Shown here: in pieces, positions 7,759-39,722 of the stretch | Numbering within the stretch: the first letter of the stretch is position 1 | Layout: every line of letters starts with the position of its first letter | Source: an uncultured Planctomycetia bacterium | GTDB taxonomy: Bacteria; Planctomycetota; CAYHQZ01 | Length of the DNA stretch: 40,089 nt | Assembly (NCBI GenBank): GCA_964358555.1 | Contig: CAYHQZ010000002.1 | Coordinates: 1-40,089, forward strand | Reading direction: 5' to 3' | The notes under the pieces: generated by a model | What the model was told of the DNA's origin: nothing | Database searches by the model: none | Seen by the model: the letters and a program-made list of their open reading frames with translations, nothing else | Made by a program: the position numbers and the translations under genes

Positions 7759-8292
7759 ATGAAGCCGCCCGGTTGCGTGCATGTTCCGGACGAAACCATC
7801 GAGCGCCGGATCTATCTGCTTCGCGGATACAAGGTCATGCTGGACATGGACTTGGCGCGGCTTTATGGCGTTTCAACGAAGGCCCTGAACCAAGCCGTCA
7901 AGCGGAACCTGGATCGCTTTCCCGGGGACTTCATGTTCTCGCTGACATGGGAGGAGAGCGAATCTTTAAGGTCACAACTTGTGACCTTAAAGAAAGGGCG
8001 CGGTCAGCACACCAAATACCTCCCCGGCGTTTTTACCGAGCAGGGCGTCGCGATGCTCTCGAGCGTCCTGCGCAGTCCGCGGGCGATCCAGGTCAATATC
8101 GCGATCATGCGCGCGTTCGTCCGTCTGCGGGCCTTTATCGCCTCCCACAAGGATCTCGCCCGACGTCTCGACGCGATGGAGAAGAAGACCGACGCCAGGT
8201 TCCAAGCCGTCTTCGACGCCATCGAGGCGCTTGCCAATCCTCCGGCTGTCGAGAAGAAGCCTCGGATCGGCTTTGCAGCCCAAGCGTCATGA
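7759..8292 (+). CDS. ORF6N-domain (KilA-N-like) DNA-binding protein
   Basis: IERRIYLLRGYKVMLDMDLARLYGVSTKALNQAVKRNLDRFPGDFMFSLT...KYLPGVFTEQGVAMLSSVLRSPRAIQVNIAIMRAFVRLR is the characteristic ORF6N signature, a family common in phage and mobile contexts. Confidence 0.9.
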   Translation: MKPPGCVHVPDETIERRIYLLRGYKVMLDMDLARLYGVSTKALNQAVKRNLDRFPGDFMFSLTWEESESLRSQLVTLKKGRGQHTKYLPGVFTEQGVAMLSSVLRSPRAIQVNIAIMRAFVRLRAFIASHKDLARRLDAMEKKTDARFQAVFDAIEALANPPAVEKKPRIGFAAQAS

Positions 8293-8359
8293 GGTTGCAC
8301 GGCCGTTTCGGGATTGGATAGGATCCGGCATTCGTGGAATGACCGGAAACGGAGGGCGC

Positions 8360-13575: not shown

Positions 13576-14079
13576 ATGCTCAAGATAATTTCCGGCGGGC
13601 AGACGGGGGCCGACCGGGCCGGCCTCGACGCCGCGATCGCGCTCGGCCTTCCGCATGGCGGGTTCTGCCCGAAGGGGCGGCGCGCCGAGGACGGCCCGAT
13701 CCCGGTGCGATACCGGATGGAGGAGACGGAGACGCCCGACTATCCCGATCGCACCGAGCGGAACGTCGAATCCGCCGACGGGACCGTCGTCTTCACGTCC
13801 GGCGCCCCGCGCGGCGGCAGCGCGCTGACGCTCGCGCTCGCGCGCAAGCACCGCAAGGCCGCGCTGCACGTCGATCTCGGGCGCGGGACGCCGGAGGATG
13901 CCGCCGGGGCCGTCCGCGCCTGGATTTCCGAGAAGGGGATCGCCGTCCTCAACGTCGCCGGCTCCCGGGAGAGCGAATCGCCCGGGATCCACGACGCGGT
14001 CCTTGCCATCCTGCAGGTGGCCCTCCGACCCGGCGCGCCCGCACCCGCCGTTCGGCAGGCGAGGCTGTTTACATCTTGA
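13576..14079 (+). CDS. YpsA-like SLOG-fold protein (family annotated as putative molybdenum carrier)
   Basis: MLKIISGGQTGADRAGLDAAIALGLPHGGFCPKGRRAEDGPIPVRYRMEETETPDYPDRTERNVESADGTVVF matches the SGGQTG.DRA...GG.CPKGR.AEDG...Y...RT..NV..SDGT signature of that family. ATG 13576 lies just after the tRNA. The 3' end overlaps the convergent gene by 11 nt. Confidence 0.8.
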   Translation: MLKIISGGQTGADRAGLDAAIALGLPHGGFCPKGRRAEDGPIPVRYRMEETETPDYPDRTERNVESADGTVVFTSGAPRGGSALTLALARKHRKAALHVDLGRGTPEDAAGAVRAWISEKGIAVLNVAGSRESESPGIHDAVLAILQVALRPGAPAPAVRQARLFTS

Positions 14080-20374: not shown

Positions 20375-21481
20375 ATGGCGCGAGACAAGGCGAAGGAGGC
20401 GGAGGTCGCGCGGCGCGTGGTGGCGCTCGGCGAAATCGTCGTCCGTGCGGCGGCGGCAGGCGAGGATCCCACGTTCAAGATTCCCATCCGGGCGCTCTCG
20501 AACTCCCGCTGGAACCCGAAACGCTCCATCATCGAACTCGGCGACGCCACGCAGGAGCGATCTCTCTTCGACCTCGGCATGGCGAAGAAGTTCATGCAGT
20601 CCTGCCTTGTCGCCTCCGGCGTGCGGGATCTCCTGAAGGAACAGAAGACCACCAGCATCCGCGATCTCTTCTACATGGTGAAGCACACCATCCCCGGCAC
20701 CGACGAGAACTCGTTTGACGAGCAGGAGGAGTCCGACGCCGTCATCGAGGACCTCGAGGTGACGGTGAACTCGCTCCGGGAGGAACTGCACCTCTTCGCC
20801 GAGAACCGAGGCGCGCTGGTCGGCGAAATCACGATCCGGGATCGCGGCGACATCATCGACGGCCGGAGAATGGGCTCCGGCGGCTGGTCCATCCCGTCCA
20901 TCGTCGAGCCGGAAGTCATCGAGTTCGTGAAGTGCACGGCGAAATACATCCTGCTGGTCGAGAAGGGCGCGGTCTGGAACCGCTTCAACGAGGACAAATA
21001 CTGGGAGCGGGAGAAGTGCATCCTGGTCCACGGCCAGGGACAGCCCCCGCGCGGGGTCCGGCGGCTTTTATCGCGGATGACGAGCGAATTGCGCCTTCCG
21101 CTCTATGTCCTCGTCGACAACGACCCCTGGGGCTACTACATCTACTCCGTCGTCAAGCAGGGGTCGATCAATCTCGCCTACGAGTCCTTGCGGATGGCGG
21201 TCCCCTCCGCCCGCTTCGTGGGCCTCTCCGCGTTCGATCCGGAGAAATACCGGCTCCCGAAGGACGTCCAGATCCGGCTCGATCCCAAGGACGTCTCGCG
21301 CGCCAAGGAAATCATGGCCTACCCCTGGTTCAAGGGCCGCCGCGGCTGGCCGCGCGAAATCAAGAAGATGCTCGACAACGGCTTCAAACTCGAAATCGAA
21401 GCCCTGTCCCGCAAGGGCATCTCGTTTATCACCGAGGAATACCTGCCGAGGAAGCTGAAGGAGAAGGACTGGCTGGAGTAG
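20375..21481 (+). CDS. top6A: DNA topoisomerase VI subunit A (Spo11-type)
   Basis: ATG lies 3 nt after the top6B stop, with GAGGAGGAG upstream. The catalytic-Tyr region is SIRDLFYMVKH. The Toprim glutamate is in ILLVEKGAVW and the DxD is in LYVLVDNDPWGYYIYS. Confidence 0.93.
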   Translation: MARDKAKEAEVARRVVALGEIVVRAAAAGEDPTFKIPIRALSNSRWNPKRSIIELGDATQERSLFDLGMAKKFMQSCLVASGVRDLLKEQKTTSIRDLFYMVKHTIPGTDENSFDEQEESDAVIEDLEVTVNSLREELHLFAENRGALVGEITIRDRGDIIDGRRMGSGGWSIPSIVEPEVIEFVKCTAKYILLVEKGAVWNRFNEDKYWEREKCILVHGQGQPPRGVRRLLSRMTSELRLPLYVLVDNDPWGYYIYSVVKQGSINLAYESLRMAVPSARFVGLSAFDPEKYRLPKDVQIRLDPKDVSRAKEIMAYPWFKGRRGWPREIKKMLDNGFKLEIEALSRKGISFITEEYLPRKLKEKDWLE

Positions 21482-21675: not shown

Positions 21676-23376
21676 ATGCTACGGGCGCTGAAGAACTTCG
21701 GGCCGCTTTCGTTGTTCGTCCTCGTGACTCTCCTGGCCGCGGGGGATGCGTTCTCGGCGGCCAAGGGCAAGGGCAAGAAGGCGCCGGAAGCCCCGGCCGA
21801 GGCCCCGCCGGCGGATCCGGCCGCGGTGCCGCCGCCCCCGCCGCTCGCCGAGTACATCGAGGACGCGGCGAATGGCTTCAAGATCCAGCCCCCGAACGGC
21901 TGGACCCGCGAGGACCCGACGGTCGTGACGCTGCCGACGGGGATCGTGATGTCCTACGTCGGGACGCCGTCCGTCGCCGGCACGCGGGCGCCCCGCTATT
22001 ACGTCTTCATCGAGACGAACGCCGATACCCTCGACGCCTACTGGGCCGGCAAGAAGGCCGCCGCCGCGGCCGCGAGCACGACGTTCAAGGAGGTCGTTCC
22101 GCCCGCGCTCGTGAAGCATCCCAACGTGGCCCTCGGCACGCCGGTCCCCGCCGACGAGCCTTCCGAGGCCCTTTACGTCCAGACGGCGGACACCGAGAAG
22201 GAAGCCACCGTCCAGACCCTCGAGGTCTTCTGCGCGTTCCCGGACGGCGCCCGGAAGCTCGTCCTGATCTGCTCCGCCCTCCAGGCGGACTACCCCAAGC
22301 TCTACTCCGACATCTTCGTGCCCTCCTTCAAGACGATGCGGTTCGTCGAGAAGCCGCCGGGCTACGAGGGGCCGGGGCCGGACCCGGGCACGACGACGCC
22401 GCCGCCGGACTCCGGCGGGACCGAGGAGCCGACGCCCCCCGTCGAGGAGCCCGCCCCGAAGACGGGCAAGACCCCCGTGGAGCCCCCGGCGGCCCCGGAG
22501 AACACCCCGCCCGATCTCGGCAAGCTCCCGGCGCAGGTCCGCGTCCCCATCGGCGAGACCGCGACGATCAAGCTCCAGGCGACCGATCCCGACAAGAAGG
22601 AGAGGCTGACCTTCTCCGCGGATCCGGTGCCGGAGGGCGCGACGATCAATCCGAAGACGGGGCTGTTCAACTTCTCGCCCAAGGGCAAGCCCGGCTCGAT
22701 CACGGTGACCTTCACGGTGACCGACTCCCAGGGCGCCTCGGATACGGAGGTCGTCGAGTTCGTCGTCCTGCGGGGCGGCCCGCCGGCGATCACCGTCGAG
22801 GGAAGCACCGAAGGCAAGGCCGGCGAGACGGTCCGGTTCACGGTGACCGCGGCCTATCCGGACGGGACGAAGGTGCCGGTGACCGCCGTCAAGATCCCCA
22901 AGACCGCGAAATTTGCCGCCGGCGTCTTCACGATGAAGTCCCCCGTCGCCGGCGAATTCCCCGTGGTCTTCACCGCGACGGACGCCTCGGGACAGAAGGC
23001 GACGGAGACCGTCACGGTGGCGTTCAAGGCCGTTCGGACGGACCCGCCCAAGATTTCCGTGGAGGGCAGCCGCGAGGCGAAGGTCGGCGAGACGATCCGA
23101 CTGACCGTGAAGGCCGTCCTTTCCGACGGCACGAAAGTGTCCGTGGCTGCCGCGAAGCTTCCCAAGGGCGCCAAGTTCGCCGGCGGCGTCTTCACGATGA
23201 AGTCGAGCCAGCCGGGCGAGCACTCGCTGACCTTCACGGCGCTGGACCCGGCGACGACGCTGAAGGCCACGGAGAGCGTTTCGATCTCGTTCAAGGGAGC
23301 CGCTCCGCCGCCTCCGCCCCCGCCGCCGGACAAGAAGAAGCCTCCCGCCAAGGAGAAAGGAACCACGCCTCCGTGA
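21676..23376 (+). CDS. secreted protein with a cadherin/He_PIG-like Ig domain and two tandem Ig-like repeats
   Basis: GGAGGA SD before ATG 21676. The signal peptide is MLRALKNFGPLSLFVLVTLLAAGDAFSA. IGETATIKLQATDPDKKERLTFSADPVPEGATINPKTGLFNFSP...VTFTVTDSQGASD is a putative-Ig (dystroglycan/cadherin-like) signature. Two 88-aa repeats follow, and the tail is poly-Pro/Lys. Confidence 0.85.
   Translation: MLRALKNFGPLSLFVLVTLLAAGDAFSAAKGKGKKAPEAPAEAPPADPAAVPPPPPLAEYIEDAANGFKIQPPNGWTREDPTVVTLPTGIVMSYVGTPSVAGTRAPRYYVFIETNADTLDAYWAGKKAAAAAASTTFKEVVPPALVKHPNVALGTPVPADEPSEALYVQTADTEKEATVQTLEVFCAFPDGARKLVLICSALQADYPKLYSDIFVPSFKTMRFVEKPPGYEGPGPDPGTTTPPPDSGGTEEPTPPVEEPAPKTGKTPVEPPAAPENTPPDLGKLPAQVRVPIGETATIKLQATDPDKKERLTFSADPVPEGATINPKTGLFNFSPKGKPGSITVTFTVTDSQGASDTEVVEFVVLRGGPPAITVEGSTEGKAGETVRFTVTAAYPDGTKVPVTAVKIPKTAKFAAGVFTMKSPVAGEFPVVFTATDASGQKATETVTVAFKAVRTDPPKISVEGSREAKVGETIRLTVKAVLSDGTKVSVAAAKLPKGAKFAGGVFTMKSSQPGEHSLTFTALDPATTLKATESVSISFKGAAPPPPPPPPDKKKPPAKEKGTTPP
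22780..23307 (+). repeat. 2 x 264-nt tandem coding repeat (88-aa Ig-like modules)
   Basis: PPAITVEGSTEGKAGETVRFTVTAAYPDGTKVPVTAVKIPKTAKFAAGVFTMKSPVAGEFPVVFTATDASGQKATETVTVAFKAV aligns with PPKISVEGSREAKVGETIRLTVKAVLSDGTKVSVAAAKLPKGAKFAGGVFTMKSSQPGEHSLTFTALDPATTLKATESVSISFKGA. The unit starts are at 22780 and 23044. Confidence 0.75.
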
Positions 23377-24110
23377 ACGCGACATCCCGTTTCCTTGCCG
23401 CTGGAGCGATTGCCTGCGCCTTCGGGCTGCTTTCTTTGACTCCCGCGTCGGCCCAGGAGGATCTCGTGGGCCGCCCGCCGGGGCCTTCGCCATCGAATTC
23501 CGATGCGACCCTGCCGGCGCCGCCCGACCCCAAGCAGGACCTCCGGACGTTCGCGAACAAGCTCTTCTCGATCATCGAATTCGGCGATGACCAGGCCGAG
23601 AAGATGCGGTCCCGGGTGAACGAGATGATCCAGGCCCGCCTCGTTCCGGGGCAGAAGGACGCCTTCCAGAAGGCCACCCAGGGCGTCGCCGGGGACGCAA
23701 AGCCCTCCGAGGTCGCCAAGCGCTACGTCCAGATCCTGCTCGACAACAAGGCCGTCGATCTGCTGCCCAGCCAGGCGGTCGGCTTCCTGGAGGATCTCCG
23801 GAAGGCCGCGCAGGAAATCCTGACGCAGGAGCAGCTCGTCGCGATCGGGATGGCGGAGAAGCCCGCCACGCCGGCGGATCTCCCGAAGCCCCCCGCGACG
23901 ACGGGCGGGACCGGCGGAGACACGACGCCTCCGGACGCGGGGACGACGCCCCCGGCGGACGGCGACAAGAAGCCCGCGACCGGCGGCAAGAAGACCCCGG
24001 GCAAGAAGACCCCGGGCAAGAAGACGCCGGGCAAAAAGACGCCGGGCAAGAAGGGCGGCGGGGAGAAGAAGCCGCCGCCGGCGCCGAAGGAAGAGGGCGG
24101 GGCGGAATGA
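23373..24110 (+). CDS. secreted protein with a Pro-rich linker and a (GKKTP)n lysine-repeat tail
   Basis: The GTG at 23373 overlaps the upstream stop (GTGA). The signal peptide is NATSRFLAAGAIACAFGLLSLTPASAQE. The C-terminus is ...GGKKTPGKKTPGKKTPGKKTPGKKGGGEKKPPPAPKEEGGAE. The stop overlaps the next start (ATGA). Confidence 0.7.
   Translation: MNATSRFLAAGAIACAFGLLSLTPASAQEDLVGRPPGPSPSNSDATLPAPPDPKQDLRTFANKLFSIIEFGDDQAEKMRSRVNEMIQARLVPGQKDAFQKATQGVAGDAKPSEVAKRYVQILLDNKAVDLLPSQAVGFLEDLRKAAQEILTQEQLVAIGMAEKPATPADLPKPPATTGGTGGDTTPPDAGTTPPADGDKKPATGGKKTPGKKTPGKKTPGKKTPGKKGGGEKKPPPAPKEEGGAE
23985..24053 (+). repeat. 15-nt tandem repeat, about 4.5 units (ggcaagaagaccccg), encoding GKKTP
   Basis: The units start at 23985, 24000, 24015 and 24030, with a partial unit at 24045. 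Only third-position differences separate them (acc/acg, aag/aaa). Confidence 0.85.
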
Positions 24111-27100
24111 GCGGCCCTCCTTCAAGGGAGGAAGCCGAGACCGGACTTCCGCGCGGGCCGGCCGCCGCCGGCCTGTCGATTGGCTTTGGCGTCGAGACGC
24201 TCCTGCTGCTGGTCTTCTTCCTTGCCTCCGGCGCTTCGGGGCTCATCCTCGAGGTTGTCTGGAGCCGGATGCTTACCCTCGTTTTCGGCTCCACGTCGCT
24301 CGCCTACGCGACGGTCCTCGCCGCATTCATGGGGGGGCTCGCCCTCGGGGCGTGGCTCGCCAGCCGGTACGCAGATCGGATCCGGGATCCCTTGCTTGCC
24401 TACGGGATTCTCGAGGGTGCCGTGGCGGTCTTCGCCCTGCTGCTGCCTTTCTATCTCGACACCCTCGTTCCCCTCTACCAGATGATCTGGCGGGAATGGA
24501 ACCCGTCCTTCCTCACGTTCAGCCTCCTTCGATTTGTCCTCGCGGCCTCCGCCCTGATCCTCCCGACGACGTGCATGGGGGCGACGCTCCCCATCCTGGG
24601 ACGGTATTACGCCGAGCGACGCTCGGGGCTGGGGCTCCAGGTTTCTCACCTCTATGCGGCGAATACATGGGGGGCGTTCGCGGGAACGCTGGCGGCCGGC
24701 TTCGCGCTGCTTCCGCTGCTCGGGGAGTCCGCTACCATCCGCGCCGCCGTGGGGATCAACCTGGCGATCTTCCTCGTCATCGCGGGCCTGCGGCTCGCGG
24801 GGGCGGGGCGCCCAGGGGAGCCCGCCTCGAAGCCCCGGGAGGGGGATGCGCCGCTCCTCGCGCTTTCGCCCCTGCCCCGGAGCGTGGTCCTGGCCGCGAC
24901 GGCGGCCTACTTCGGCTCGGGCCTCGCCGGGATGGCCGCCCAGATCGCCTGGACGCGCTCGCTGTCGCTCCTGATCGGGTCCTCCGTCTACGCCTTCACG
25001 GCGGTCGTGGCGGCCTATCTCGTGGGGATCGCGGCCGGCTCGTCGGTCTACGCCGCATGGGGCCGCCGCGTCCAGCGCGATCCCTCCTGGCTCGCCGGGG
25101 CCCACCTTTGCGCCGGGGCCTGCATGATCGCCGGGATCTATCTCTTCCCGGTCCTGCCCTACCTTTCTTTCGACCTGCATTCAAAGTTCCAGGACTACCC
25201 GCGGATCATCCTGCTCGTCCAGGTTCTGCTCTCGATCCTCCTGATCTTCCCGGCGGCTTTTTTCCTCGGCGGGATCTTTCCCGCAACCGCCAAGATCTGC
25301 GCCCGTTCCCCCGGGCGGGTCGGCCGCGACATCGGCCGGGCCTACGCCGCCAACACCGTCGGCGCGATCGTCGGCTCGTTCCTCGGCGGGTTCATCTTCC
25401 TGTTCGTGGACGCCCTCGGATTCCAGGACGGGCTCTGTCTCGGCCGGCCGATCCTCGTCTGGACGATCGGGCTCGGCGGGCTGTGCCTCTGCCTCGGCGC
25501 GCTCGTCGTGTCGCTCTCGGGGAGCCGCCCCGGCATCGCCCCGGAGGCGCGCGGCGGCGTCCGCCAGATCGCGCTGGCGGCGATCTACCTGCCGGTGCTG
25601 CTGCTGGGGCTCCTGCCCGCCTACATGGAGTCCGGCGAGTTTTCGGACCTCGCGCGCAACCTGGGCCTTACGAAGCGGCCGCCGGGGGAGCGGATCCTCG
25701 TTCTCGTCGGGCCCGAGCGGGGCATTTCCTATCACCTGACGAACGTGACGCCTGCGGATCCCGCGACGCGCCGGGAACGGGACTGGACCATCGGGCGGGA
25801 TTCAAAGAACCGGATCCCGCTCTCCGACCCGTCCGTTCCGGACCGGGCGGCGAAGCTCTTTGTCGAGGGGGATGCCTGGACGATCGAGGCCCTCTCGCCC
25901 GGCGTCCAGGTGGAGGGGCGGCCCCTCGAGAAGGGCTCGAAGAATATCCTGGCGTTCGGGGATCGGATCCTGGTCGGCCGGACGATGCTTGCGTTCGAGC
26001 GGGATCCCGGAGTTCGCTTGTGGGACCCCACGCTCATGTCGAGCGGGGTCTTCTACTACGTGGACAGCGACGATGGCGCGGATCCCCGCCGCGACGACGA
26101 CCCCGTCTTCTACCGCGAGGGCGTCACGACGACCGTCACGGTCTTCCAGGACTCCATCCGCGAGGACAACCTCTACTACCTCGTCGTGAACGGCAAGGTC
26201 GACGCCTCGACCCGGGGCGACATGAAGACCCAGGTCCTCCTCGCGCACCTGCCGATCCTGGCGCACCCGAGCCGCAGCCCCAAGGACGTCCTCGTCATCG
26301 GGTGGGGCTCGGGGACCACGGTCGGGTCCTGCCTCAACTACCCGCCCTCGGAGGTGCGAAAGGTTCTCGCCTGCGAACTGGAGAAGTCCGTGATCGAGGG
26401 GTCGCGCTGGTTCGAGAGCGTGAACTCGAAGCCCCGTGAGCATCTGGCGACCGGCCGCCTCGAGATCCAGGCCAACGACGCCCGGAACTATCTCCTCGCC
26501 ACCGATCGGATGTTTGACGTCGTGATTTCCGAGCCGTCGAACCCCTGGATTTCCGGGGCCGCGAAGCTCTTCACGCGCGAGTTCTACGAGTCCGCCTCCC
26601 GGCGCCTGAATCCCGACGGGATCTGGTGCCAGTGGATCCAGGCCTACGGCCTCAAGCGCAGCGACTTCAAGACGCTGCTCGCGACGTTCCGGGAGACCTT
26701 CCCGCACGTCGCGGTGTTCACGGACTACGAGTCGGACCTCTACGTCCTGGGCTCCAAGTCCCCGCTCGCCTTCGACGTCGCCGCCATCGAGAAGGTCCTT
26801 GCCGACCACCCGGGCGTCTCCGGCGATCTGGCCCGGAAGAACGTCGACATCACCGGCGTCCACGACCTCCTGGCCCACCACATCTTCGGGAGCCGGACGA
26901 TGAACGAGTTCCTCGGGAAGGGCGCGATCGCCCTGAACACGGATGACAACGCGCGCATCGAGTTTTCCACGCCCCTTTCGCTCCTTTCCGACGAGCGTTC
27001 CGAGATCGACAGCGACCTCGTCGGGGCCATCGATCCCGAGGGCGCGCCGTTCAAGACGGATCCGGCCCGGCCCCACTTGAAGGACGAACTCCTGCTCCGC

Positions 27101-27499
27101 ATCGCCGCGTGGCACAGCGCCGAGGCCCGCCACCCCGCGGCGCTCGAGATGCTCAACGGCGTGATCGGCCGGGATCCGACCCTTGCGGGCGCCTACGCGG
27201 AGCGCGCCCGGATCCGGCTCGCGAAGGCGAAGACCGAGAAGCGGACCGCCCTCGAATCGCTCGAGGATCCCGTGGCGCCCTTCCGGCCCGCCGCCGACGA
27301 TCTCGAGGCCGCCCTGGACATCGATCCGACGGACCCGCGCGCGCAGGTCGCCCTCCGGGAATTCCTCAAGACCCTGGGGGCGAACGCGTATCTCTTCGAG
27401 GAACTCAAGCCCTACCTGCCCAAGGAGCCTCCGTCGGAGGAGGAAGCGCCGCCCGCCGCGCCCGGGGATCCCATCGAGGCGCCGAAGGCACCGGAATAG
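24107..27499 (+). CDS. fused polytopic-membrane / spermidine-synthase-like (aminopropyltransferase-fold) protein with an FHA-like insert and C-terminal TPR
   Basis: About 12 or more hydrophobic helices span 24180-25640. An FHA-like segment lies at 25688-26010. The methyltransferase-fold PABS core is DVLVIGWGSGTTVGSCL...VLACELEKSVIE...FDVVISEPSNPWISGAAKLFTREFYESASRRLNPDGIWCQWIQAY. TPR-like helices lie near 27050-27400. Confidence 0.88.
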   Translation: MSGPPSREEAETGLPRGPAAAGLSIGFGVETLLLLVFFLASGASGLILEVVWSRMLTLVFGSTSLAYATVLAAFMGGLALGAWLASRYADRIRDPLLAYGILEGAVAVFALLLPFYLDTLVPLYQMIWREWNPSFLTFSLLRFVLAASALILPTTCMGATLPILGRYYAERRSGLGLQVSHLYAANTWGAFAGTLAAGFALLPLLGESATIRAAVGINLAIFLVIAGLRLAGAGRPGEPASKPREGDAPLLALSPLPRSVVLAATAAYFGSGLAGMAAQIAWTRSLSLLIGSSVYAFTAVVAAYLVGIAAGSSVYAAWGRRVQRDPSWLAGAHLCAGACMIAGIYLFPVLPYLSFDLHSKFQDYPRIILLVQVLLSILLIFPAAFFLGGIFPATAKICARSPGRVGRDIGRAYAANTVGAIVGSFLGGFIFLFVDALGFQDGLCLGRPILVWTIGLGGLCLCLGALVVSLSGSRPGIAPEARGGVRQIALAAIYLPVLLLGLLPAYMESGEFSDLARNLGLTKRPPGERILVLVGPERGISYHLTNVTPADPATRRERDWTIGRDSKNRIPLSDPSVPDRAAKLFVEGDAWTIEALSPGVQVEGRPLEKGSKNILAFGDRILVGRTMLAFERDPGVRLWDPTLMSSGVFYYVDSDDGADPRRDDDPVFYREGVTTTVTVFQDSIREDNLYYLVVNGKVDASTRGDMKTQVLLAHLPILAHPSRSPKDVLVIGWGSGTTVGSCLNYPPSEVRKVLACELEKSVIEGSRWFESVNSKPREHLATGRLEIQANDARNYLLATDRMFDVVISEPSNPWISGAAKLFTREFYESASRRLNPDGIWCQWIQAYGLKRSDFKTLLATFRETFPHVAVFTDYESDLYVLGSKSPLAFDVAAIEKVLADHPGVSGDLARKNVDITGVHDLLAHHIFGSRTMNEFLGKGAIALNTDDNARIEFSTPLSLLSDERSEIDSDLVGAIDPEGAPFKTDPARPHLKDELLLRIAAWHSAEARHPAALEMLNGVIGRDPTLAGAYAERARIRLAKAKTEKRTALESLEDPVAPFRPAADDLEAALDIDPTDPRAQVALREFLKTLGANAYLFEELKPYLPKEPPSEEEAPPAAPGDPIEAPKAPE

Positions 27500-30546: not shown

Positions 30547-32445
30547 TTACGGCGCCGGCCGGGCCGGCCATCGGGGCTGGGCGGCGAGGTTGGGGGTTTC
30601 GGCGACGATCCGGCTAAACGTTGCGGCGAGGTCGGGGCGCTCGGGCAGGAGGTCGCGCGTCTCGCCGGGGTCGGCGGCGAGGTCGAAGAGGCGATCCCCC
30701 TCGAGCGTCGAGGAGACGAACCGGAAGTCCTTCCAGAGGATTGCGAAAGCGCTTAAGTCCCAGCCCCGGACCGCGTTGACGCTCGTCACGAACAGGAACC
30801 GGTCCTCGGGGACGGCCTGAAAGAGCGAGCGGCCGGGGAGCTCGTCAAGGAGGGCGCGGTTCTTGGGGTCCGCGTCCAGGCCCAGCGCCTCGACGACGGT
30901 CGGCAGGACGTCGAGGTTCGAGACGTTCCGGCGCGCGTTCGCGCGGAGGCGCTCGCGGCGGGACGCGTCGGCCGAAGGCCCCCGCTTCGGCAGCCGGAGC
31001 ATCAGCGGAATCCCGGCGACGTCCTCGTAGGCGTTCTCCGTCCGCGCGACGGCCCGGCGGCGCTCGGAAAAATCCCCGTGGTCGGCCGTGAACACGAGAA
31101 GCGTGTCGTCCAGCCGGCCGGCGCGCCCGAGGGATGCGCGGATCCGGTCGAAAACCTGGTCCATGATCCAGAGGGCGCGGTCGTAGCGGTGGGGGATGGG
31201 CGGCATGTCGGGCAGCCGGGGGCTCGAGCCCTGGAACGGATAATGGGTCGCGTTCGAGTAGTAGATCGCGAAGAAACGTTCGCCGGGCGGCGTGCCCTCG
31301 ATGAGGCTTTCGAGGGCGCGGACGCCGAGCATCTCGTCCTTGCCGAGATCGTTCACGGCGACGCCCGGGATGTCGCGGGCCGTGATCGTCCGATCGGGCC
31401 CCGGCGCCGAGAGCAGGAAGCGGTCGACCCCGGCCCATTCGGCGCGCGACGGGGAGGCGAAATAGCAGTTTCGGATGCCGGCGGCGCGGGCCCAGCCCCA
31501 GAACAGGGGCATCCGGTGGAGCTTCTCGTTGGGCTCCCAGGGCGCGACGCCCGTGACGAGCGACGGCAGGCTCAAGTCCGTGACGGGGGCGTTCGAGTAG
31601 GCCCGGTCGAAGGCGACGAACCGGTCCGGCTCGGCGTCGATCCAGGCGCGCAGGCGAGGCATCGTCTCCTCGGGGTGCCCGAAGCGCTTCAGGCGCGCCC
31701 GGCCCCATGACTCGTTGATGAGGAGGATGACGTTCGGGACGTCCGGTCCGCCCACGGGCGCGGGCGCGATCCGGTCCGGCGAGGGATGGAGGCGCGATCG
31801 TGCGGGTCCGAAGAGGGCGGCGTTCGAGGCCTGCGCGGCGGCCAGGAACGCGCATGCGTCCGGTGCGGCGCGCAGCGGGATCCGGTGCGCGCGGACGGGG
31901 AACGAAAGCCCCGCCGCGAGGGCGGTCGCAGCCGCGGCGACGGCGAGGCGCTCGCGGGCCGGGGGGCGGACGCAGGCATGCCGGGGGCGCCAGAGCCACA
32001 AGGTCAGGCCGACGGCGCCGGCGAACGGGAGGTAGAGCGGCCAGGGGATGTAGGAGGTCAGGTAGTCGCCCAGGAGCCCGGGATTGCCGGCGATGATGGC
32101 CAGGTCGTAGCGAGTCAGGTAGTTGCCCACGGCGCGGCTGACGATGAAGCTCGACGCGAGCGTCAGCAAAAAGCCGGTCGAGACGAGGCCCGCGGCGGGC
32201 CAGGCGAGCGCCCGGGGAAGCGACTGGACGGCGAGCCACAGGAGCGTCCAGCACGAGGCCGCGAAGAGGACCGACGCCGCGTAGGGCAGGAACTCGAAGG
32301 GCTTCCGGAACGGGACCGCGATCTGGCAGGCCGCGTCGAGGGCGACGAAGGCGAGGGCGGAGAGGAGGGGAACACCCAAAAACCGCCCACGGAGAATGTC
32401 CGTTCCGGCCCCGCTGGCGGTTTCAGCCCGTTCGGGTTCGTTCAC
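30547..32445 (-). CDS. membrane-anchored alkaline-phosphatase-superfamily transferase (sulfatase / phosphoethanolamine-transferase / LtaS-like)
   Basis: GTG start at 32445. The N-terminus has about 5 TM helices. The catalytic domain shows PNVILLINESWG (metal site), APVTDLSLPSLVTG (Thr nucleophile context), YYSNATHYPF and LLVFTADHGD. It lies directly upstream of, and co-oriented with, the Dus gene. Confidence 0.85.
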   Translation of the reverse strand: MNEPERAETASGAGTDILRGRFLGVPLLSALAFVALDAACQIAVPFRKPFEFLPYAASVLFAASCWTLLWLAVQSLPRALAWPAAGLVSTGFLLTLASSFIVSRAVGNYLTRYDLAIIAGNPGLLGDYLTSYIPWPLYLPFAGAVGLTLWLWRPRHACVRPPARERLAVAAAATALAAGLSFPVRAHRIPLRAAPDACAFLAAAQASNAALFGPARSRLHPSPDRIAPAPVGGPDVPNVILLINESWGRARLKRFGHPEETMPRLRAWIDAEPDRFVAFDRAYSNAPVTDLSLPSLVTGVAPWEPNEKLHRMPLFWGWARAAGIRNCYFASPSRAEWAGVDRFLLSAPGPDRTITARDIPGVAVNDLGKDEMLGVRALESLIEGTPPGERFFAIYYSNATHYPFQGSSPRLPDMPPIPHRYDRALWIMDQVFDRIRASLGRAGRLDDTLLVFTADHGDFSERRRAVARTENAYEDVAGIPLMLRLPKRGPSADASRRERLRANARRNVSNLDVLPTVVEALGLDADPKNRALLDELPGRSLFQAVPEDRFLFVTSVNAVRGWDLSAFAILWKDFRFVSSTLEGDRLFDLAADPGETRDLLPERPDLAATFSRIVAETPNLAAQPRWPARPAP

Positions 32446-32474
32446 GGAAAAGATTTTATCGAATCAATCCCTAG

Positions 32475-32503
32475 TTGACACCCAACCCCTGGACCCACTA
32501 CCA
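32475..32503 (+). promoter_or_regulatory. sigma70-like promoter of nrdR and the NrdD-like gene
   Basis: TTGACA (32475-32480), 17-nt spacer, TACCAT (32498-32503). A partial palindrome CACTAccatTTGTG overlaps the -10. Confidence 0.4.
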
Positions 32504-32620
32504 TTTGTGCTCGCGCGCCGGTGGTCGGCGCAGGGGTGCGGGTCGATGATCCCATTTTTTCAGGTTCGGAGGGAACTCCCGGCGCGGCCCGATGTTCCGG
32601 GCGGCGAGGATGATGTCGCG

Positions 32621-33127
32621 GTGTGGTGTCCATTCTGCAAAAATTCCGATAGCCGGGTCATCGACTCCCGCAGTCCCGGCGAAGGTTTCATCATCCGGCG
32701 CCGGCGCGAGTGCCTCGCCTGCAAGCGCCGGTTCACGACCTACGAGCGTATCGAGCAGAAGCCGCTCAAGGCGGTGAAGAAGGACGGCACCCGGGTGCCT
32801 TACGACCGCGAAAAGATCCTCTCGGGCCTCCGGAAGGCCTGCCAGAAGCGGCCCGTCTCGGAGGACGCCATCGAGGAGGTCGCCGCCGCTATCGAGGTCG
32901 AGGCCCACGAGCAGCCCGACGGCGAGGTCTCGACCGCCTGGATCGGCGAGCGGATCATGCACCACCTGCGGGGCCTAGACCAGGTCGCCTACGTCCGGTT
33001 CGCTTCCGTCTATCGCGCATTCCAGGATGTCTCCGACTTCGTCACCGAGGTCCGCCCGATGCTGGAGCCGGGCCATCCTCCGGTGCGTGTTTCGGAGGGA
33101 TCTCCCTCGCGTCCCCTCGGGCCCTAA
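32621..33127 (+). CDS. nrdR: transcriptional repressor NrdR (zinc ribbon + ATP-cone)
   Basis: WCPFCKNSDSRVIDSRSPGEGFIIRRRRECLACKRRFTTYERIE is followed by an ATP-cone (VKKDGTRVPYDREKILSGLRKACQKRPV...). GTG 32621 lies 10 nt after GAGGA and gives the canonical M-x-CPFC N-terminus. An upstream ATG at 32546 is the alternative start. The stop is TAA at 33125-33127. Confidence 0.9.
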   Translation: MWCPFCKNSDSRVIDSRSPGEGFIIRRRRECLACKRRFTTYERIEQKPLKAVKKDGTRVPYDREKILSGLRKACQKRPVSEDAIEEVAAAIEVEAHEQPDGEVSTAWIGERIMHHLRGLDQVAYVRFASVYRAFQDVSDFVTEVRPMLEPGHPPVRVSEGSPSRPLGP

Positions 33128-33155: not shown

Positions 33156-35294
33156 GTGTCGATCATCCAGATCCGAAAGCGAGACGGACGCCTCGTCCCG
33201 TTCGACGGAGCGAAGATCTCGGAGGCGATCTATCGGGCCGCCGTCTCCGTTGGCGGCGAGGATCGCGCGCTGGCCGACGAACTCGGGGGCGTTGTGAAGG
33301 TTTTGCTCGAGCGGGAATTCCGCGATCGGGTCCCCGGGATCGAGGACATCCAGGACCTCGTCGAGAAGGTCCTGATCGAGACGGGCCACGCGAAGACCGC
33401 GAAGGCCTATATCCTCTACCGCGATCGCCGGGCGCGGATTCGCGAGACCCTCTCCGTTCGCAAGGAGCGCCCCGCCCTCGAGGGCCCCCGGGTCGAGTCC
33501 GCCAGCCGATCCGAGGTCCGCCCCTGGAACAAGGCCCGGATCGTGGACGCCCTCGTCGCCGAGGCCGACCTGCCCCGCCCCGAGGCGGAAGAGGTCGCCC
33601 GCGAGGTCGAGGACCGGATCTTCCGTGCGGGGCTCCAGAAGCTCTCCACCTCGCTCGTACGGGCGCTCGTGGACAACGTCCTGCTCGAGCGGGGACTGGA
33701 AAACCGCCTCGCCCGCCAGCGCTCCATCGGGCTGCCGAAGTTCGACGTCCGGGAGATACTGAAGGGAAAGGGGGTCGCACCCACGGGCCGATCCCCGTCG
33801 GCCCGGGACGCCTCTGCGCGAATCGCGGGCGCCATCCTCGGGGCCCACAACCTCGAGGAGGCGTTCAGCCCGGAGGTTCTCGAGGCCCATCGGGAGGGGC
33901 GCATCGATCTCGGGGACGCGGCGTCCATCGCCCCATCCAGGCTTCGCACGATCCCGCTCAAGACCCTGCTCGCCCCCGAGGCGAACGCCTCCTGGGCCCG
34001 GCCGCCCCGCGTGCCGGGCGATTTGCCTTCGATGCTGCGGGCCATCCTCGACGCCGTGGAAGCCCTCGGGGCCGCCGGCGTCCCCGCCGTCGCGATCCCG
34101 CTCCTGGATGCGTTCCTTTCGCCCTGGGCGGAATCCGCGGAGCGGCGCGACGTCTCCCGGTTTGCTTCCGGGCTTCTCGATGGCCTGGAGCGGATCTGCC
34201 GGCTCGGCGGCCCCCGGGCCGAAATTCATCTCTGTGCGTCGATGCCCGCCGACGTCCGGGCCCTTCCCGCCTGCGGGACCGGCGGGGCGCCGCTGCCCAA
34301 GCCCTACGGGGCCTGCGAGGAGTCCGCCCGCTCGCTCGCCCGCGCGATTTTGGCCGCCTACGGGGAGCGCAATGCCGCCGAGCGCGCCCTCGACGCCCCG
34401 CGCGTGGTCCTGCGGGTCGCTCCCGAGGACCTCGAGCGCGCCGACTCTCTTGCCCTCGTCGAATACGCGGCCGTCATCGTCGAGGACAACGGGGGTCCGA
34501 TCTTCTCTCTCGCCGGGATCCGTTCCGCGGGGATTCCGGGCCTGCCTTCGCCTTCGGGAGAGGGCTTCCCGTTGTGGGACCGGCCGGTCTCGGTCTTGGA
34601 GGGCGTTTCGCTGAACCTCCCGCTTGCGGCCCTGGAGGCCGGAGGCGAAGAGGGGCGGCTCTACGAGGCCCTGGAAAGCCGGCTTTCGCTTGCGACCCGG
34701 GCGCTCACCGAGCGGCGGGCATTCCTGCGCGAAATCGGGCTTTCCGCCTCCGGCGTCGCCCCGGCCGCCCTCGAGGTCTTCCCCGTGGCCCTCGTCGGGC
34801 TGCCCGAATGCGCAGCCGCCCTCTTGGGTCCGGGCCCCGAGGCCGCGCGCGCTTCGCGGATCCTGGCGTTCCTGTCCGCGCAGGCAAAGACCGCGGCCGC
34901 CGGCGCGGCGAGCGGTGTTCTGCGGTCCGGCGAGCGGACGGCCGTCGCCGCCCGGTTCGCCCGGACGCTTCGCGACCGCGGCTCGATCTCCTCCGTCTCG
35001 CGCGGGATCCTGCGCGAGGGGGATCCGGAGTGGCTCGCCGCCGCGCCCCGCCTCGCCCCGTTCCTTTCGGAAGGGCCCGTCCGCCGGGTCCGCTCGTCCG
35101 CGGAGCCGGTGGATCGGGAGATTGTCCAGGGGATGCTGCAGTCGCTGCTCCGGAGCGGCGGCTTCCGCGGCCTGGCCGTCCTGCCGGAGGGCTCGATCTG
35201 CCACGGCTGCCGGGACTTCGTCCCGGAGGGCCGTGCCTGCCCCCGTTGCGGCCCCGGCGCCGCGACCTCGGTTCCGGAGCTGGAGTTCGAATGA
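33156..35294 (+). CDS. divergent NrdD-like (class III ribonucleotide reductase-like) protein with two ATP-cones and a C-terminal zinc ribbon, no visible glycyl-radical motif
   Basis: GTG 33156 lies 28 nt after the nrdR stop. ATP-cone 1 is IQIRKRDGRLVPFDGAKISEAIYRAA...YILYRDRRARIRE. ATP-cone 2 is VRPWNKARIVDALVAEADLPRPEAEEVAREVEDRIF...LVDNVLLERG. AHREGRIDLGD resembles the NrdD aH..G.ihiHD segment (from memory). The protein ends ..GSICHGCRDFVPEGRACPRCGPGAATSVPELEFE. Confidence 0.7.
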   Translation: MSIIQIRKRDGRLVPFDGAKISEAIYRAAVSVGGEDRALADELGGVVKVLLEREFRDRVPGIEDIQDLVEKVLIETGHAKTAKAYILYRDRRARIRETLSVRKERPALEGPRVESASRSEVRPWNKARIVDALVAEADLPRPEAEEVAREVEDRIFRAGLQKLSTSLVRALVDNVLLERGLENRLARQRSIGLPKFDVREILKGKGVAPTGRSPSARDASARIAGAILGAHNLEEAFSPEVLEAHREGRIDLGDAASIAPSRLRTIPLKTLLAPEANASWARPPRVPGDLPSMLRAILDAVEALGAAGVPAVAIPLLDAFLSPWAESAERRDVSRFASGLLDGLERICRLGGPRAEIHLCASMPADVRALPACGTGGAPLPKPYGACEESARSLARAILAAYGERNAAERALDAPRVVLRVAPEDLERADSLALVEYAAVIVEDNGGPIFSLAGIRSAGIPGLPSPSGEGFPLWDRPVSVLEGVSLNLPLAALEAGGEEGRLYEALESRLSLATRALTERRAFLREIGLSASGVAPAALEVFPVALVGLPECAAALLGPGPEAARASRILAFLSAQAKTAAAGAASGVLRSGERTAVAARFARTLRDRGSISSVSRGILREGDPEWLAAAPRLAPFLSEGPVRRVRSSAEPVDREIVQGMLQSLLRSGGFRGLAVLPEGSICHGCRDFVPEGRACPRCGPGAATSVPELEFE

Positions 35295-35349
35295 TTCCAT
35301 CGTTCACCCAAGAACGGCCGGCAAGCGCCGGCCCAGGAGCGTCGTCGCC

Positions 35350-35679
35350 GTGCGCCTGAAGTCCCTCGATCTCTACGGATTCAAGTCCTTCGCCGATCGC
35401 ACCGAGTTTTCCTTCGACCGCGGGGTCACGAGCATCGTCGGCCCGAACGGCTGCGGGAAGTCGAACGTCGTCGACGCGATCAAGTGGATCCTCGGCGAGC
35501 AGTCGGCCAAGAGCCTCCGCGGGTCCGAGATGGCCGACGTCGTGTTCAACGGGACGGACAAGCGAAAGCTCCTGCCCTTCGCGGAGGTGACGCTTTCGTT
35601 CGTGAACGGCGCGAACGGCGGCGGCGAGGAGGAGGTCCGGATTACGCGCCGGGTCTACCGGGACGGGACCGGCGAATAA
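35350..35679 (+). CDS. smc: SMC N-terminal head fragment (Walker A), terminated by an in-frame TAA
   Basis: The GTG start gives M/V-RLKSLDLYGFKSFADRTEFSFDRGVTSIVGPNGCGKSNVVDAIKWILGEQSAKSLRG...ITRRVYRDGTGE, followed by TAA at 35677-35679. Confidence 0.85.
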   Translation: MRLKSLDLYGFKSFADRTEFSFDRGVTSIVGPNGCGKSNVVDAIKWILGEQSAKSLRGSEMADVVFNGTDKRKLLPFAEVTLSFVNGANGGGEEEVRITRRVYRDGTGE

Positions 35680-35904
35680 CGCCGGAACGGCGAGCCCTGC
35701 CGCCTGAAGGACATCAAGGAACTCTTCCTCGACACGGGCTCCAGCCTCGACTCGTTCGCCATCGCCGAGCAGGGCCGGATCGACGCGATTCTCAACGCCA
35801 GCCCCCAGGAGCGCCGCGGCATCCTCGAGGAGGCGGCCGGGATCAGCCGGCTCAAGTCGAAGAAGAAGGAAAGCCTCGCGCGTCTCGATCGCGCCGGCCA
35901 GAAC

Positions 35905-38900
35905 TTGGAGCAGCTCCGGGCGGTGCTCCAGGAAATCGAACGCTCGCTGCGATCCGTGCGCGTCCAGGCGGGCAAGGCGCGTTCCTATCAGGCCCTCGTC
36001 GGCGAGCAGCGCGAAAAAAGAGTCCTCCTGATGCTTCGCCAGCGATCCGACGCCGTCGAGCGGGTCCGGCTGGCCCGGGAGGCCAGGACCGGCGCCGAGC
36101 GCGTCCGCAACGAAGCGGGGGCCGCGTTGGAGGCGGCCGAGACGGCCCTCCGGTCCGCCGAGGAAGCCTTTGAATCGATCCGCGCCGAGCGGGAGGCCGC
36201 CCGGGCGGAGCTGCTCACGCGGGAAGGGGAGCGGATGGTCGCCCTCGAGCGTCTCGAAAACGCCCGCGCCCGCTTCGTCTCCCTAGAAGTCCGGATCGCG
36301 GAAGCCTCCGATCGCGCCGCGGCCGAGGCGGCCCGCCAGGCCGCCCGCGCCATCGAGGTCAAAACCGCGATCGAGGCCTGCGCCGCCGCGGAGGCGGCCG
36401 TCCGGGAGGCGGCTGTTCGCGAGCAGGAGGCGAACGGCCGGCTCGAGGACGTCGAGTCCGCGATTCGCGAGATCGAGGCGGCGGCCGCGGAGGCCCGCCG
36501 GCATGCGTTCGAGGCGGCCGAGTCGGCGGCTCGGGCCGCGTCCGACGAGTCTGCGGCCCGGACCGAGGAGCAGACCCACGAATCCCGCCTCCGCCGGTTC
36601 CGCGAGCGCCAGGAGGAGGTCGAGAAGCGGGCGGCCCGCCACCAGGCCGACCTGGAACACATGGCCGCCCGGATCCGGGCGCATGCGGAGAGCCTCGGGA
36701 TCCTCGAGGGGGACTGGAAGGAGCACTCGGAGATGGAGGCCGCGGTCCAGGCCTCCCGGAGCCAGATCGCGGAGGCCCACCGCAAGATGTCCGAGCAGCG
36801 GGCGGCCCTTTCGTCCCGGCTCGAGATCCTCGAGGACCTCGAGCGCCGCCACGAGGGAATCGCGGCCGGCGCGCGCGCGATCCTCGATCGGGGATCGGAT
36901 CGGATCGAGGGGATCGTCGGGATCCTCGCGGAGCGGATCGACGCCCGTTTTGAGGACGCCCGCGCGGTCGAGGCGCTTCTCGGGGAGTTCGTGTCCGCCC
37001 TCGTCGTCCGGGAATCCTCCGCCGCCTGCGCGGCCGCCGCGTTCCTGCACGAATCGAACGAGGGGCGCGCCCTCATGCTGCCGCTCGATCGATTCGGGCC
37101 GGGCGCGGAGGCGCCCGCGGCGATGCCGGCCGGGACCCGGCGCGCCCTGGACTCCGTGACCGCCCCGCCCGAACTCGCAGGCGTTCTGGCCCGGCTTCTC
37201 GGATGTGCCGCCCTCGCGCCTTCGCTGGAAACGGCGCTTGCGCTCGCGGCCGCCTCGCCTCCGGGCTGGGCGTTCGCGACCCCGGACGGCGAGGTCGTCC
37301 GATCCGACGGATGCGCCCTCGTGGGCGGGACCGGCGTCGAGGGTCCGCTGACCCGTCGCATGGAGATCCGGCGCCTGCAATCGGTCATCGGCGAGGTCGG
37401 CGCGGAGATGGACAGGCTTTCGGACGATCTCTCCGAGCACGAGCGGAAGGCCGCCTGGATCGAGGCCGAGAAAAAGCAGCTCCGCACCCGGATCTACGAC
37501 GAAAACGTCCTGAAGCAGGAAGCCGAGGGGGCGCGCAAGGCGACGGAGGCGGCGCTGATCGCGGCGAGGGACGAGGAGCGGATCCACCGCTCCGAAATCG
37601 AGGAGGCCGAGCGAGGCCTCGGGGAAGCCCGACAGCGGCGCGAGGCCGCCGACGCCGCGCGCAAATCGCACGACGCCGAGCGGGCGGCCGGCGAGGCGGC
37701 CATCGCGGAAGCCCTGCTGCGCCGCGAGGCGCTCGGGGCCGAGCGGGCGGCGGCCGTTTCGGAACTCACGTTCGCCCGGACGGTCCTCACGCGCGCCCAG
37801 GCCGACGCCGAGTCCGCCGAGGCGCGTGTTGCAACCGCCCGGCGGGCGGAGGAGGAAGGCGCCCTCGTCCTCGGGACGCTGCGCTCGGACGCGGATCGCG
37901 CCCGGGCCGAGCGCGAAACGAGCGCTTCGGAAATCGAGCAGGCGGGAGGCGTCGTCGCGACGCTGGAGCGTTCCATCGGGGAGACCTCCGAACGGCTCGC
38001 CCGCCTCGAGACCGGCGAGGGCGGCGCCCGGACGGCGCGGGAGGCCGCCGACGCCTCCGCGCGGACCGCGCGCGAGGACCTCCAGTCCGCCGAGGCCGTC
38101 CGGGCCGGGGCTGTCGCGGAGGAGGCGGGGCGGGAGGGGGAGCTTAAGGGGCTCGAGGAGCGCGCCCGCGAGGAGCTGGATTCCGACCTCGAATCCGTCG
38201 CGGCGGCCCGGCCGGCCGGCGAGGAGATGCCGCCGGAGTCCGAGCTCAAGAGCGCACTCGAGACGCTCAAGCGGAAAATCGAGCACATGGGCCAGGTAAA
38301 CCTGAACGCCATCGCCGAGCAGGAGGAGCTGGAGGCCCGCCACACGAGCCTCTCCGCCCAGGAGCAGGACGTGCTCAAGGCCAAGGCCGACCTGGAGGCC
38401 ATGATCGAGGAGATCAATCGGGTCAGTCGCGACCGCTTCGCGACCACGTTCGCGGCCGTCCGCGAGAATTTCCAGGAGGTCTTCCGGAAGCTCTTCGGCG
38501 GCGGCAAGGCCGACATCCTCCTCGAGGAGGGCAAGGACGTGCTCGAGGCCGGGATCGAGATCGTCGCCCGCCCGCCGGGGAAGGACCTTCGCACGATCTC
38601 GCTTCTGTCCGGCGGCGAGAAGACGCTGACGACGCTGGCGCTGCTGTTCGCCGTTTTCCGCACCCGTCCGTTCCCCTTCACCGTCCTCGACGAGGTGGAC
38701 GCGGCGCTCGACGAATCGAATATCGATCGGTTCATCGGGATGCTCAAGGAGTTCTCGAAGACCTCCCAGTTCATCATCATCACGCACAGCAAGAAGACGA
38801 TGGCCTCCGCGGACGTCCTTTACGGCATCACGATGCCGGAGGCGGGCGTCTCGAAGAAGGTCGAGGTCCGGATCGAAGAGGTGGAGAGGGTCCTCGAGGA

Positions 38901-38922
38901 AGTCCCGGCCGCTTCGCGGTAG
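35905..38922 (+). CDS. smc: SMC remainder (coiled coils, hinge, signature motif, Walker B); homology actually resumes at 35680 in the same frame
   Basis: The frame is the same as 35350..35679. Codons 35680-35904 read RRNGEPCRLKDIKELFLDTGSSLDSFAIAEQGRIDAILNASPQERRGILEEAAGISRLKSKKKE, which includes the Q-loop region. The hinge is GIVGILAERIDARFEDARAVEALLGEFVSALVV. The signature motif is LSGGEKTLTTLALLFA and the Walker B is FTVLDEVDAALD. The TTG at 35905 is only the first possible start codon after the stop. Confidence 0.85.
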   Translation: MEQLRAVLQEIERSLRSVRVQAGKARSYQALVGEQREKRVLLMLRQRSDAVERVRLAREARTGAERVRNEAGAALEAAETALRSAEEAFESIRAEREAARAELLTREGERMVALERLENARARFVSLEVRIAEASDRAAAEAARQAARAIEVKTAIEACAAAEAAVREAAVREQEANGRLEDVESAIREIEAAAAEARRHAFEAAESAARAASDESAARTEEQTHESRLRRFRERQEEVEKRAARHQADLEHMAARIRAHAESLGILEGDWKEHSEMEAAVQASRSQIAEAHRKMSEQRAALSSRLEILEDLERRHEGIAAGARAILDRGSDRIEGIVGILAERIDARFEDARAVEALLGEFVSALVVRESSAACAAAAFLHESNEGRALMLPLDRFGPGAEAPAAMPAGTRRALDSVTAPPELAGVLARLLGCAALAPSLETALALAAASPPGWAFATPDGEVVRSDGCALVGGTGVEGPLTRRMEIRRLQSVIGEVGAEMDRLSDDLSEHERKAAWIEAEKKQLRTRIYDENVLKQEAEGARKATEAALIAARDEERIHRSEIEEAERGLGEARQRREAADAARKSHDAERAAGEAAIAEALLRREALGAERAAAVSELTFARTVLTRAQADAESAEARVATARRAEEEGALVLGTLRSDADRARAERETSASEIEQAGGVVATLERSIGETSERLARLETGEGGARTAREAADASARTAREDLQSAEAVRAGAVAEEAGREGELKGLEERAREELDSDLESVAAARPAGEEMPPESELKSALETLKRKIEHMGQVNLNAIAEQEELEARHTSLSAQEQDVLKAKADLEAMIEEINRVSRDRFATTFAAVRENFQEVFRKLFGGGKADILLEEGKDVLEAGIEIVARPPGKDLRTISLLSGGEKTLTTLALLFAVFRTRPFPFTVLDEVDAALDESNIDRFIGMLKEFSKTSQFIIITHSKKTMASADVLYGITMPEAGVSKKVEVRIEEVERVLEEVPAASR

Positions 38923-38946
38923 GCTTTCCAGGCTAGAATCCGGGGG

Positions 38947-39609
38947 ATGAGACCGCTGGCCTCGTTTTGGCTCCTTTCGGCGGCCCTCGCCGCCGCCCTT
39001 CTCGCCGCCGACGGGGGAGCCCCGCCGGCGCCTTCTTCGCCGCCCGCCGAGGCGAAGGCGGCTCCGGAGGCCGGCAATGCGGCGGATTCCTCCAGCGCCC
39101 GGCGGGCGGCGGAGGAATTCTCGAAGCGCATCCTCGCGCTGGAACTGGCCGACGAGCAGTGGGAGGGCCTCGCGGGAGCCGCGGTCGAGGCGATCTCGCG
39201 GATCCTGTCCGAATCCGAGCGGCCCGCGTTCGAGCGCGCCCTGCCGGACGCCGCCGCGGGAGGCCGCGCGCGCCTCGAGGCCGCCCTTCGGCGCATCGCC
39301 GCCCGCGTCGACCTCACCGACGTCCAGTCGAGGCATCTCAAGGAACGCCTGTTGTCGTTCTGCCGGGGGAATCTCACGGAGGCCCAGCAGGCCGGGATCG
39401 GGGCTTTGCAGCCCGGCAAGGAAATCGAGCAGCCCAAGACCGTTCCCTACGCGGGCGGGGCGGCTCCTTCGGGCGGGGGGGCGGCGCCGGCCGCCGGCGA
39501 CGGGCTGGCGCCTCTTCCGGACGCCGACGCTCCTTCCGAGCCATCCGGAGGGGGCGGGGCCGGGAAGGGCAAAAAGGCCGGCGGGGCGAAAAAGAAGAAA
39601 AAGAAGTAG
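38947..39609 (+). CDS. secreted hypothetical protein with a Gly/Pro linker and a poly-lysine tail
   Basis: The signal peptide is MRPLASFWLLSAALAAALLAADG. A helical middle region follows. The C-terminus is ...GGGGAGKGKKAGGAKKKKKK. Confidence 0.7.
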   Translation: MRPLASFWLLSAALAAALLAADGGAPPAPSSPPAEAKAAPEAGNAADSSSARRAAEEFSKRILALELADEQWEGLAGAAVEAISRILSESERPAFERALPDAAAGGRARLEAALRRIAARVDLTDVQSRHLKERLLSFCRGNLTEAQQAGIGALQPGKEIEQPKTVPYAGGAAPSGGGAAPAAGDGLAPLPDADAPSEPSGGGGAGKGKKAGGAKKKKKK

Positions 39610-39692
39610 CCCGAAGGCAACTTTCCCCTCTCCGGAGACGTTCGTACGGGGTGGAGGCCGGAGATCCCGGCCGGAGAGCCGGCGACTCTTCG

Positions 39693-39722
39693 TTGACAGG
39701 GAAAAATGAAGCAACCTACAAT
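39693..39722 (+). promoter_or_regulatory. sigma70-like promoter for the last, partial gene
   Basis: TTGACA (39693-39698), 18-nt spacer, TACAAT (39717-39722). Confidence 0.4.

Follow-up and report, generated by a model that had tools for sequence, protein, structure and literature searches.

The window analysed in this study is the contig CAYHQZ010000002.1, taken at its full length of 40,089 nucleotides (nt), from the metagenome-assembled genome (MAG) GCA_964358555.1 of an uncultured Planctomycetia bacterium. The smc gene considered here lies on the plus strand at positions 35350–38922. It is written in a single frame from GTG 35350 to the TAG ending at 38922, in total 1191 codons (1190 and the terminal TAG), and its translation is interrupted only once, by a TAA at codon 110 (35677–35679) that is read directly from the sequence. 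The local context is ...ACC GGC GAA TAA CGC CGG AAC GGC..., so that the base following the stop is C. The start at GTG 35350 is considered sound, since MRLKSLDLYGFKSF lines up with the N-termini of homologues and a GGAG is found at 35336–35339, about 9–10 nt upstream.

The stop divides the frame into three parts. The N-terminal open reading frame (ORF; 35350–35679, plus strand, GTG start) encodes 109 amino acids (aa), with a Pfam SMC_N match at residues 3–107. It is followed by 75 codons (35680–35904) without any in-frame ATG, GTG or TTG, holding the CRLKDI and DTG segments and the Q-loop AEQG. The longest ORF downstream of the stop (35905–38922, plus strand, 1005 aa) starts at TTG and comprises the coiled coil, the hinge, LSGGE, Walker B and the H-loop. 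The public gene call for the C-terminal piece, P0001, starts at GTG 35923 with MLQEIER and is 999 aa long; no other database protein is identical to the window smc. Hence the gene differs from an intact one in that the whole polypeptide is not encoded by one unbroken ORF.

In the conceptual product we identified Walker A GPNGCGKSN (residues 31–39, positions 35440–35466), the arginine-finger segment KSLRG (35509–35523), the Q-loop AEQG (35764–35775) with its glutamine at Q141, the hinge motif GIVGIL (36910–36927), the signature LSGGE (residues 1086–1090, 38605–38619), Walker B VLDEVD (residues 1112–1117, 38683–38700), the D-loop DAALD (residues 1117–1121) and the H-loop ITH (residues 1144–1146, 38779–38787). 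The motif set of an ABC-type ATPase (Walker A, Q-loop glutamine, signature, Walker B, D-loop and H-loop) is thus complete. When codon 110 is entered as X, the product reaches 895.7 bits with the TIGR02168 model (SMC_prok_B; equivalog cutoff, 567.35) and is aligned end to end (residues 2–1175 on profile positions 1–1181 of 1181). Pfam assigns SMC_N to both fragments and SMC_hinge (PF06470, E = 1.4e-18, residues 329–442 of P0001) to the C-terminal one. The N-terminal head matches the head structures of Bacillus subtilis Smc, 3ZGX and 5XG3, with E = 1e-60.

The product is therefore a canonical bacterial condensin ATPase, and the gene, although disrupted, belongs to an ordinary family. It resembles the Smc of the B. 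subtilis Smc–ScpAB condensin in length (about 1190 aa) and in the order of domains, i.e. the Walker A half-head, the Q-loop, a long antiparallel coiled coil, the hinge and the C-terminal ATPase motifs. The differences are the stop at codon 110 and lineage-specific residues at usually conserved sites (R112, S131, S132, A139, Q188, A191, Q220, F1108 and I1175). Profile scans of the ORFs in the 40-kb contig gave no match to ScpA or ScpB.

An earlier note on this DNA, made from the sequence alone, had described the complete SMC frame with its motifs and the TAA, and both the translation and the profile score agree with it. It had also placed codon 110 at the Tyr/Phe position of canonical SMCs, proposed a single TAC-to-TAA change and suggested that the orthologous codon be compared in related genomes. 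We aligned 239 homologues, consisting of the best full-length and N-terminal matches. All 239 have Tyr in the codon-110 column and none has a stop; B. subtilis Smc has Phe. Among the Tyr codons of the window genes, 157 are TAC and 38 are TAT (81% TAC), and smc itself contains four TAC and one TAT. Given the invariant Tyr column and the codon usage dominated by TAC, one C-to-A change is the simplest origin of the stop and is sufficient to produce it.

The next in-frame ATG, GTG or TTG downstream of the stop is TTG 35905. Since no start precedes it, residues 111–185 (75 core residues, including Q141) are lost from the allele, as the ORF listing confirms and as was originally proposed. The smc allele as written is a null allele.

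The use of TAA in the window was assessed on 20 gene models selected on codon-position GC content. TAA terminates four of them: the DUF6036 nucleotidyltransferase gene (7597–7599), where stops in the same frame recur at about 7727 and 7739, before the next gene; the VIT gene (14069–14071, minus strand); the sulfatase gene (30547–30549, minus strand); and nrdR (33125–33127). These terminators are trailed by non-coding sequence or further stops. An internal stop occurs in smc alone, none of the other 19 models containing an internal TAA. Reassignment of TAA to a sense codon thus finds no support. The earlier note had reached the same view from the nrdR, nucleotidyltransferase and VIT terminators, to which the sulfatase gene is now added.

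It had further recommended a search for suppressor tRNAs, and none was found in the window by ARAGORN or Rfam. ARAGORN calls a tRNA-Ala(GGC) and a dubious tRNA-Arg, and Rfam reports the tRNA-Ala only. The second call, a 91-nt tRNA-Arg(TCG) at 22401–22491 on the minus strand, lies inside a plus-strand ORF with Ig/PKD domains, is not reported by Rfam at the gathering threshold and is therefore a probable false positive. Folding of the 141 nt that surround and follow the smc stop gave no better result than shuffled sequences (z = −0.17), showing no stimulatory RNA structure.

The state of the gene on both sides of the stop bears on the age of the lesion. Upstream of the stop, codon positions 1, 2 and 3 have GC contents of 0.60/0.44/0.92; the 75 codons downstream show the same coding signature, with 0.65/0.45/0.93. 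The invariant residues immediately downstream, N113, R118, D121, G130 and E140-Q141-G142, are kept. Plotted by frame, the entire 40-kb window showed no frame switch, in smc or elsewhere. Consequently, the gene does not look like an old decayed pseudogene: it has one stop, no frameshift, a third-position GC content of 0.92–0.93 on both sides and whole motifs. The intact motifs, the undisturbed codon-position GC and the absence of frameshifts mean that the lesion is either very recent or artefactual. The rarity of stops in the frame is not informative in itself. The antisense strand carries an open frame of 1143 aa (36283–39714) at about 70% GC, and for this reason a single stop in 1190 codons is no evidence of selection.

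We found no close relative of the gene. The nearest non-identical SMC shares 40% identity with it over the entire length, and 62% over the N-terminal head when the N-terminal 227 aa were used as the query. A scan of GTDB genomes gave 57% identity at best, with matches from Planctomycetota and other MAGs. In the JGI metagenomes, a DNA pattern covering the synonymous codons of GTGE[Y/*]RRNGEPCR had no match, and a hinge-based search for the locus retrieved only relatives with 31–34% identity. Hence no sister sequence of the window smc was found in any collection searched, and neither full-length nor N-terminal protein searches yielded a homologue divided at the codon-110 site. The neighbouring NrdD, a class III ribonucleotide reductase, is 32–37% identical to its best database match. 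As it is as distant as smc, the whole contig comes from a very isolated lineage, and the organism is deep-branching and Planctomycetota-like. A chimeric contig, in which the N-terminal piece would derive from a more typical organism, was considered and rejected, because nrdD is as isolated as smc and the composition is uniform along the contig.

The protein was then scored by position against its homologues, with segment z-scores computed relative to 119 of them. Residues 1–50 (z = −0.3) and the C-terminal head, residues 1051–1150 (z from −0.8 to −1.4), are normal. The most aberrant segment comprises residues 111–150 (35680–35800), whose z of −6.9 is lower than that of any of the 119 homologues. 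Low scores are also found in the head-proximal coiled coil (z = −4.9 for residues 231–300 and −4.0 for residues 901–1000); the divergent coiled-coil arms are seen at 35905–36250 and 38050–38350, the Walker A and Walker B regions being normal.

Residues present in less than 1% of the 239 homologues were counted as rare. Ahead of the stop they fill 2 of 83 conserved columns, compared with 13 of 93 beyond it (Fisher p = 0.006); within residues 111–150 the figure is 7 of 33 (p = 0.002). A drop between the two sides as large as in the window SMC is seen in none of the 239 homologues. The rare residues after the stop are R112, S131, S132, F136, A137, A139, N149, L168, A177, Q188, A191, S199 and Q220. 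They are often conservative or large-to-small substitutions, and F136 is also the B. subtilis residue. Several of them require two nucleotide changes and hence are evolutionary changes, not read errors. At conserved columns, the window SMC has 28 residues unseen in its relatives, compared with a median of 2 for homologues, although divergent homologues have up to 25–33. Judging from these sequence comparisons, we read the asymmetry as probable lineage-specific remodelling on a very long branch.

The TAA is also located in the loop of a perfect 6-bp hairpin predicted by RNA folding, CCGGCG-AATAA-CGCCGG (35669–35685, plus strand), whose 3' arm encodes R111-R112. R112 is absent from the 239 homologues. 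Bases within comparable hairpins make up 6.3% of the window and 11% of smc, and as such hairpins are common, the placement of the stop in one of them is not significant. A mutation templated by the quasipalindrome was rejected as the source of the stop: it could give the CTG-to-CGG change at R112, but not the loop base 35679.

The explanation we tentatively favour, giving it a little less than an even chance, is a consensus error. The TAC of Tyr110 would have been written as TAA through one incorrect base of the deposited sequence, originating from a base-call or assembly error or from a minority allele taken into the contig. The organism would then make a normal full-length SMC ATPase, with nothing special at codon 110. 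That the error lies in the record and not in the cell is our inference; the distance of one base from a Tyr codon, the otherwise intact gene and the ordinary use of TAA in the window are observed directly. The strengths given to the explanations here are judgement-based estimates. Errors are blind to gene function, which speaks for this explanation, and selection should purge a nonsense allele of so conserved a gene in most bacteria.

Many of the "pseudogenes" with an internal stop in bacterial assemblies have been shown by re-assembly experiments to be artefacts that stem from coverage, platform and assembler (Cooley & Wright 2024, PMC11017572). The window smc resembles these cases in that one stop splits an otherwise intact conserved gene into two fragments. 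It differs in that the artefacts were told apart using near-identical genomes or re-assembly, and the window gene has no close relative. Draft MAGs are well known to contain conserved genes interrupted by a lone internal stop, and the window smc does not represent a new kind of system. If the base is erroneous, it matters only for the annotation, in which the fragments merge into one smc, and at least one base of the MAG contig is then wrong. In practice, the locus is best annotated either as one smc gene or as a pseudogene.

Several observations weigh against the consensus error and speak for the main alternative, a real nonsense mutation that inactivated smc recently and is either fixed or dominant in the population that was sampled; this we regard as a serious possibility, although short of probable. 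The contig is otherwise clean, since the 20 gene models contain no other internal stop and the frame does not switch anywhere in the 40 kb, contrary to what is expected from sloppy assembly. As stops result from only 2.9% of the single-base changes in smc, a lone nonsense error is a rare draw. In some bacteria, e.g. Corynebacterium glutamicum, smc is reported to be dispensable and its deletion to cause no growth defect (PMC11898615). Finally, the atypical residues downstream of the stop could hint at a longer-standing relaxation. The 28 unusual residues also speak for a real allele. The low score of residues 111–150 and the excess of rare residues after the stop fit mild relaxation, and the clustering beside the stop slightly raises the odds of a real lesion.

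If the mutation is real, the products would be a 109-aa N-terminal stub and, at most, a fragment of about 1000 aa that lacks the head, and the cell would live without Smc–ScpAB, perhaps by means of ParABS, FtsK, topoisomerase VI or IV or another condensin. Such an inactivation must be very young, since the motifs, the C-terminal head and the codon-position GC are intact and there is no second stop. The unusual residues are explained equally well by the long isolated branch, as indicated by the distance of NrdD and by the counts in divergent homologues, and general decay is not expected to leave residues 1–50 untouched. The odds between an error and a real recent null allele are split roughly evenly, and a small share of the total is assigned to none of the explanations. 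Of the options initially listed in the earlier note, i.e. an error, pseudogenisation and readthrough, the last has become less likely. A real allele would mean that smc has been knocked out naturally in a deep-branching, uncultured lineage, which would join the bacteria that tolerate the loss of Smc–ScpAB. It would leave the understanding of condensins unchanged; wider interest would arise only under the unlikely readthrough.

Decoding of the TAA, either by readthrough with a near-cognate tRNA-Tyr or by a suppressor tRNA encoded elsewhere, probably with insertion of Tyr, is very unlikely. It would provide a small, possibly regulated output of full-length SMC, and the remodelled residues 111–150 would be part of the arrangement. 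C after a stop is the weakest 3' context in E. coli termination, and C is the base found here; moreover, few SMC complexes per cell suffice, and the 75 downstream codons keep both the coding signature and the invariant motifs. In having an in-frame stop within a conserved ORF whose downstream part is still coding-like, smc is similar to genes with programmed readthrough or suppression. In contrast to them, its stop is TAA and not the leakier TGA, is not conserved in relatives (none of the 239 has it) and serves nearby as a normal terminator with clear non-coding sequence after it, and the gene has neither a stimulatory structure nor a suppressor tRNA in the window. Besides, UAA, which both release factors recognise, is the tightest of the bacterial stops.

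A split or re-initiated smc, in which the 109-aa N-terminal piece and a C-terminal piece would form a working head, is extremely unlikely and the least credible explanation. Translation of the C-terminal piece would have to begin at TTG 35905, at GTG 35923 or at a non-canonical codon immediately downstream of the stop. Head halves of SMC and Rad50 can be reconstituted in vitro from separate chains, two-chain head constructs are among the matches in the PDB, and conservation falls sharply right after the stop. However, the sole sequence resembling a Shine–Dalgarno site, GAAGGA (35706–35711), has no start at a usable distance; starts at 35905 or 35923 drop the Q-loop and core strands; the invariant residues kept between N113 and G142 indicate that these codons were translated until recently; and all homologues are undivided at this site.

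Two ways of bypassing the stop were also rejected. For a frameshift, the +1 and −1 frames downstream of the stop contain no SMC sequence, and CRLKDI and the Q-loop are in the 0 frame. If translation hopped from the GGC of codon 108 to that of codon 114, the conserved EYxIN strand would be missing, which does not fit the conservation of N113.

Several other features of the window were noted. The class III (anaerobic) nrdD, with an ATP-cone, is located at 33156–35294, after nrdR (32396–33127), and its product is 712–755 aa long, compared with about 800–815 aa in homologues. Two large ORFs at 381–4886 (1501 aa) and 4904–6898 (664 aa) have a strong coding signature (third-position GC of about 0.8–0.9) and no match in Pfam or NCBIfam. 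The DUF6036 nucleotidyltransferase-like gene (7117–7599) adjoins a gene with an ORF6N domain (7759–8292) in a region of lower local GC content (0.64), and this pair may be a small mobile or toxin–antitoxin-like module. The ORF at 8231–9433 (400 aa) has a weak sub-threshold match to a precursor family of ribosomally synthesized and post-translationally modified peptides from the NHLP clan (Os1348 family; 31 bits, the cutoff being 40). A 1130-aa protein encoded at 24107–27499 combines an MFS-like membrane region with FHA and spermine/spermidine-synthase-like domains, and its ATG overlaps the stop codon of the upstream ORF (ATGA). Finally, this Planctomycetota-like contig carries a pair of topoisomerase VI genes, the B subunit at 18404–20371 (Topo-VIb transducer and HATPase domains) followed by the A subunit at 20375–21481 (TP6A_N and Toprim domains).

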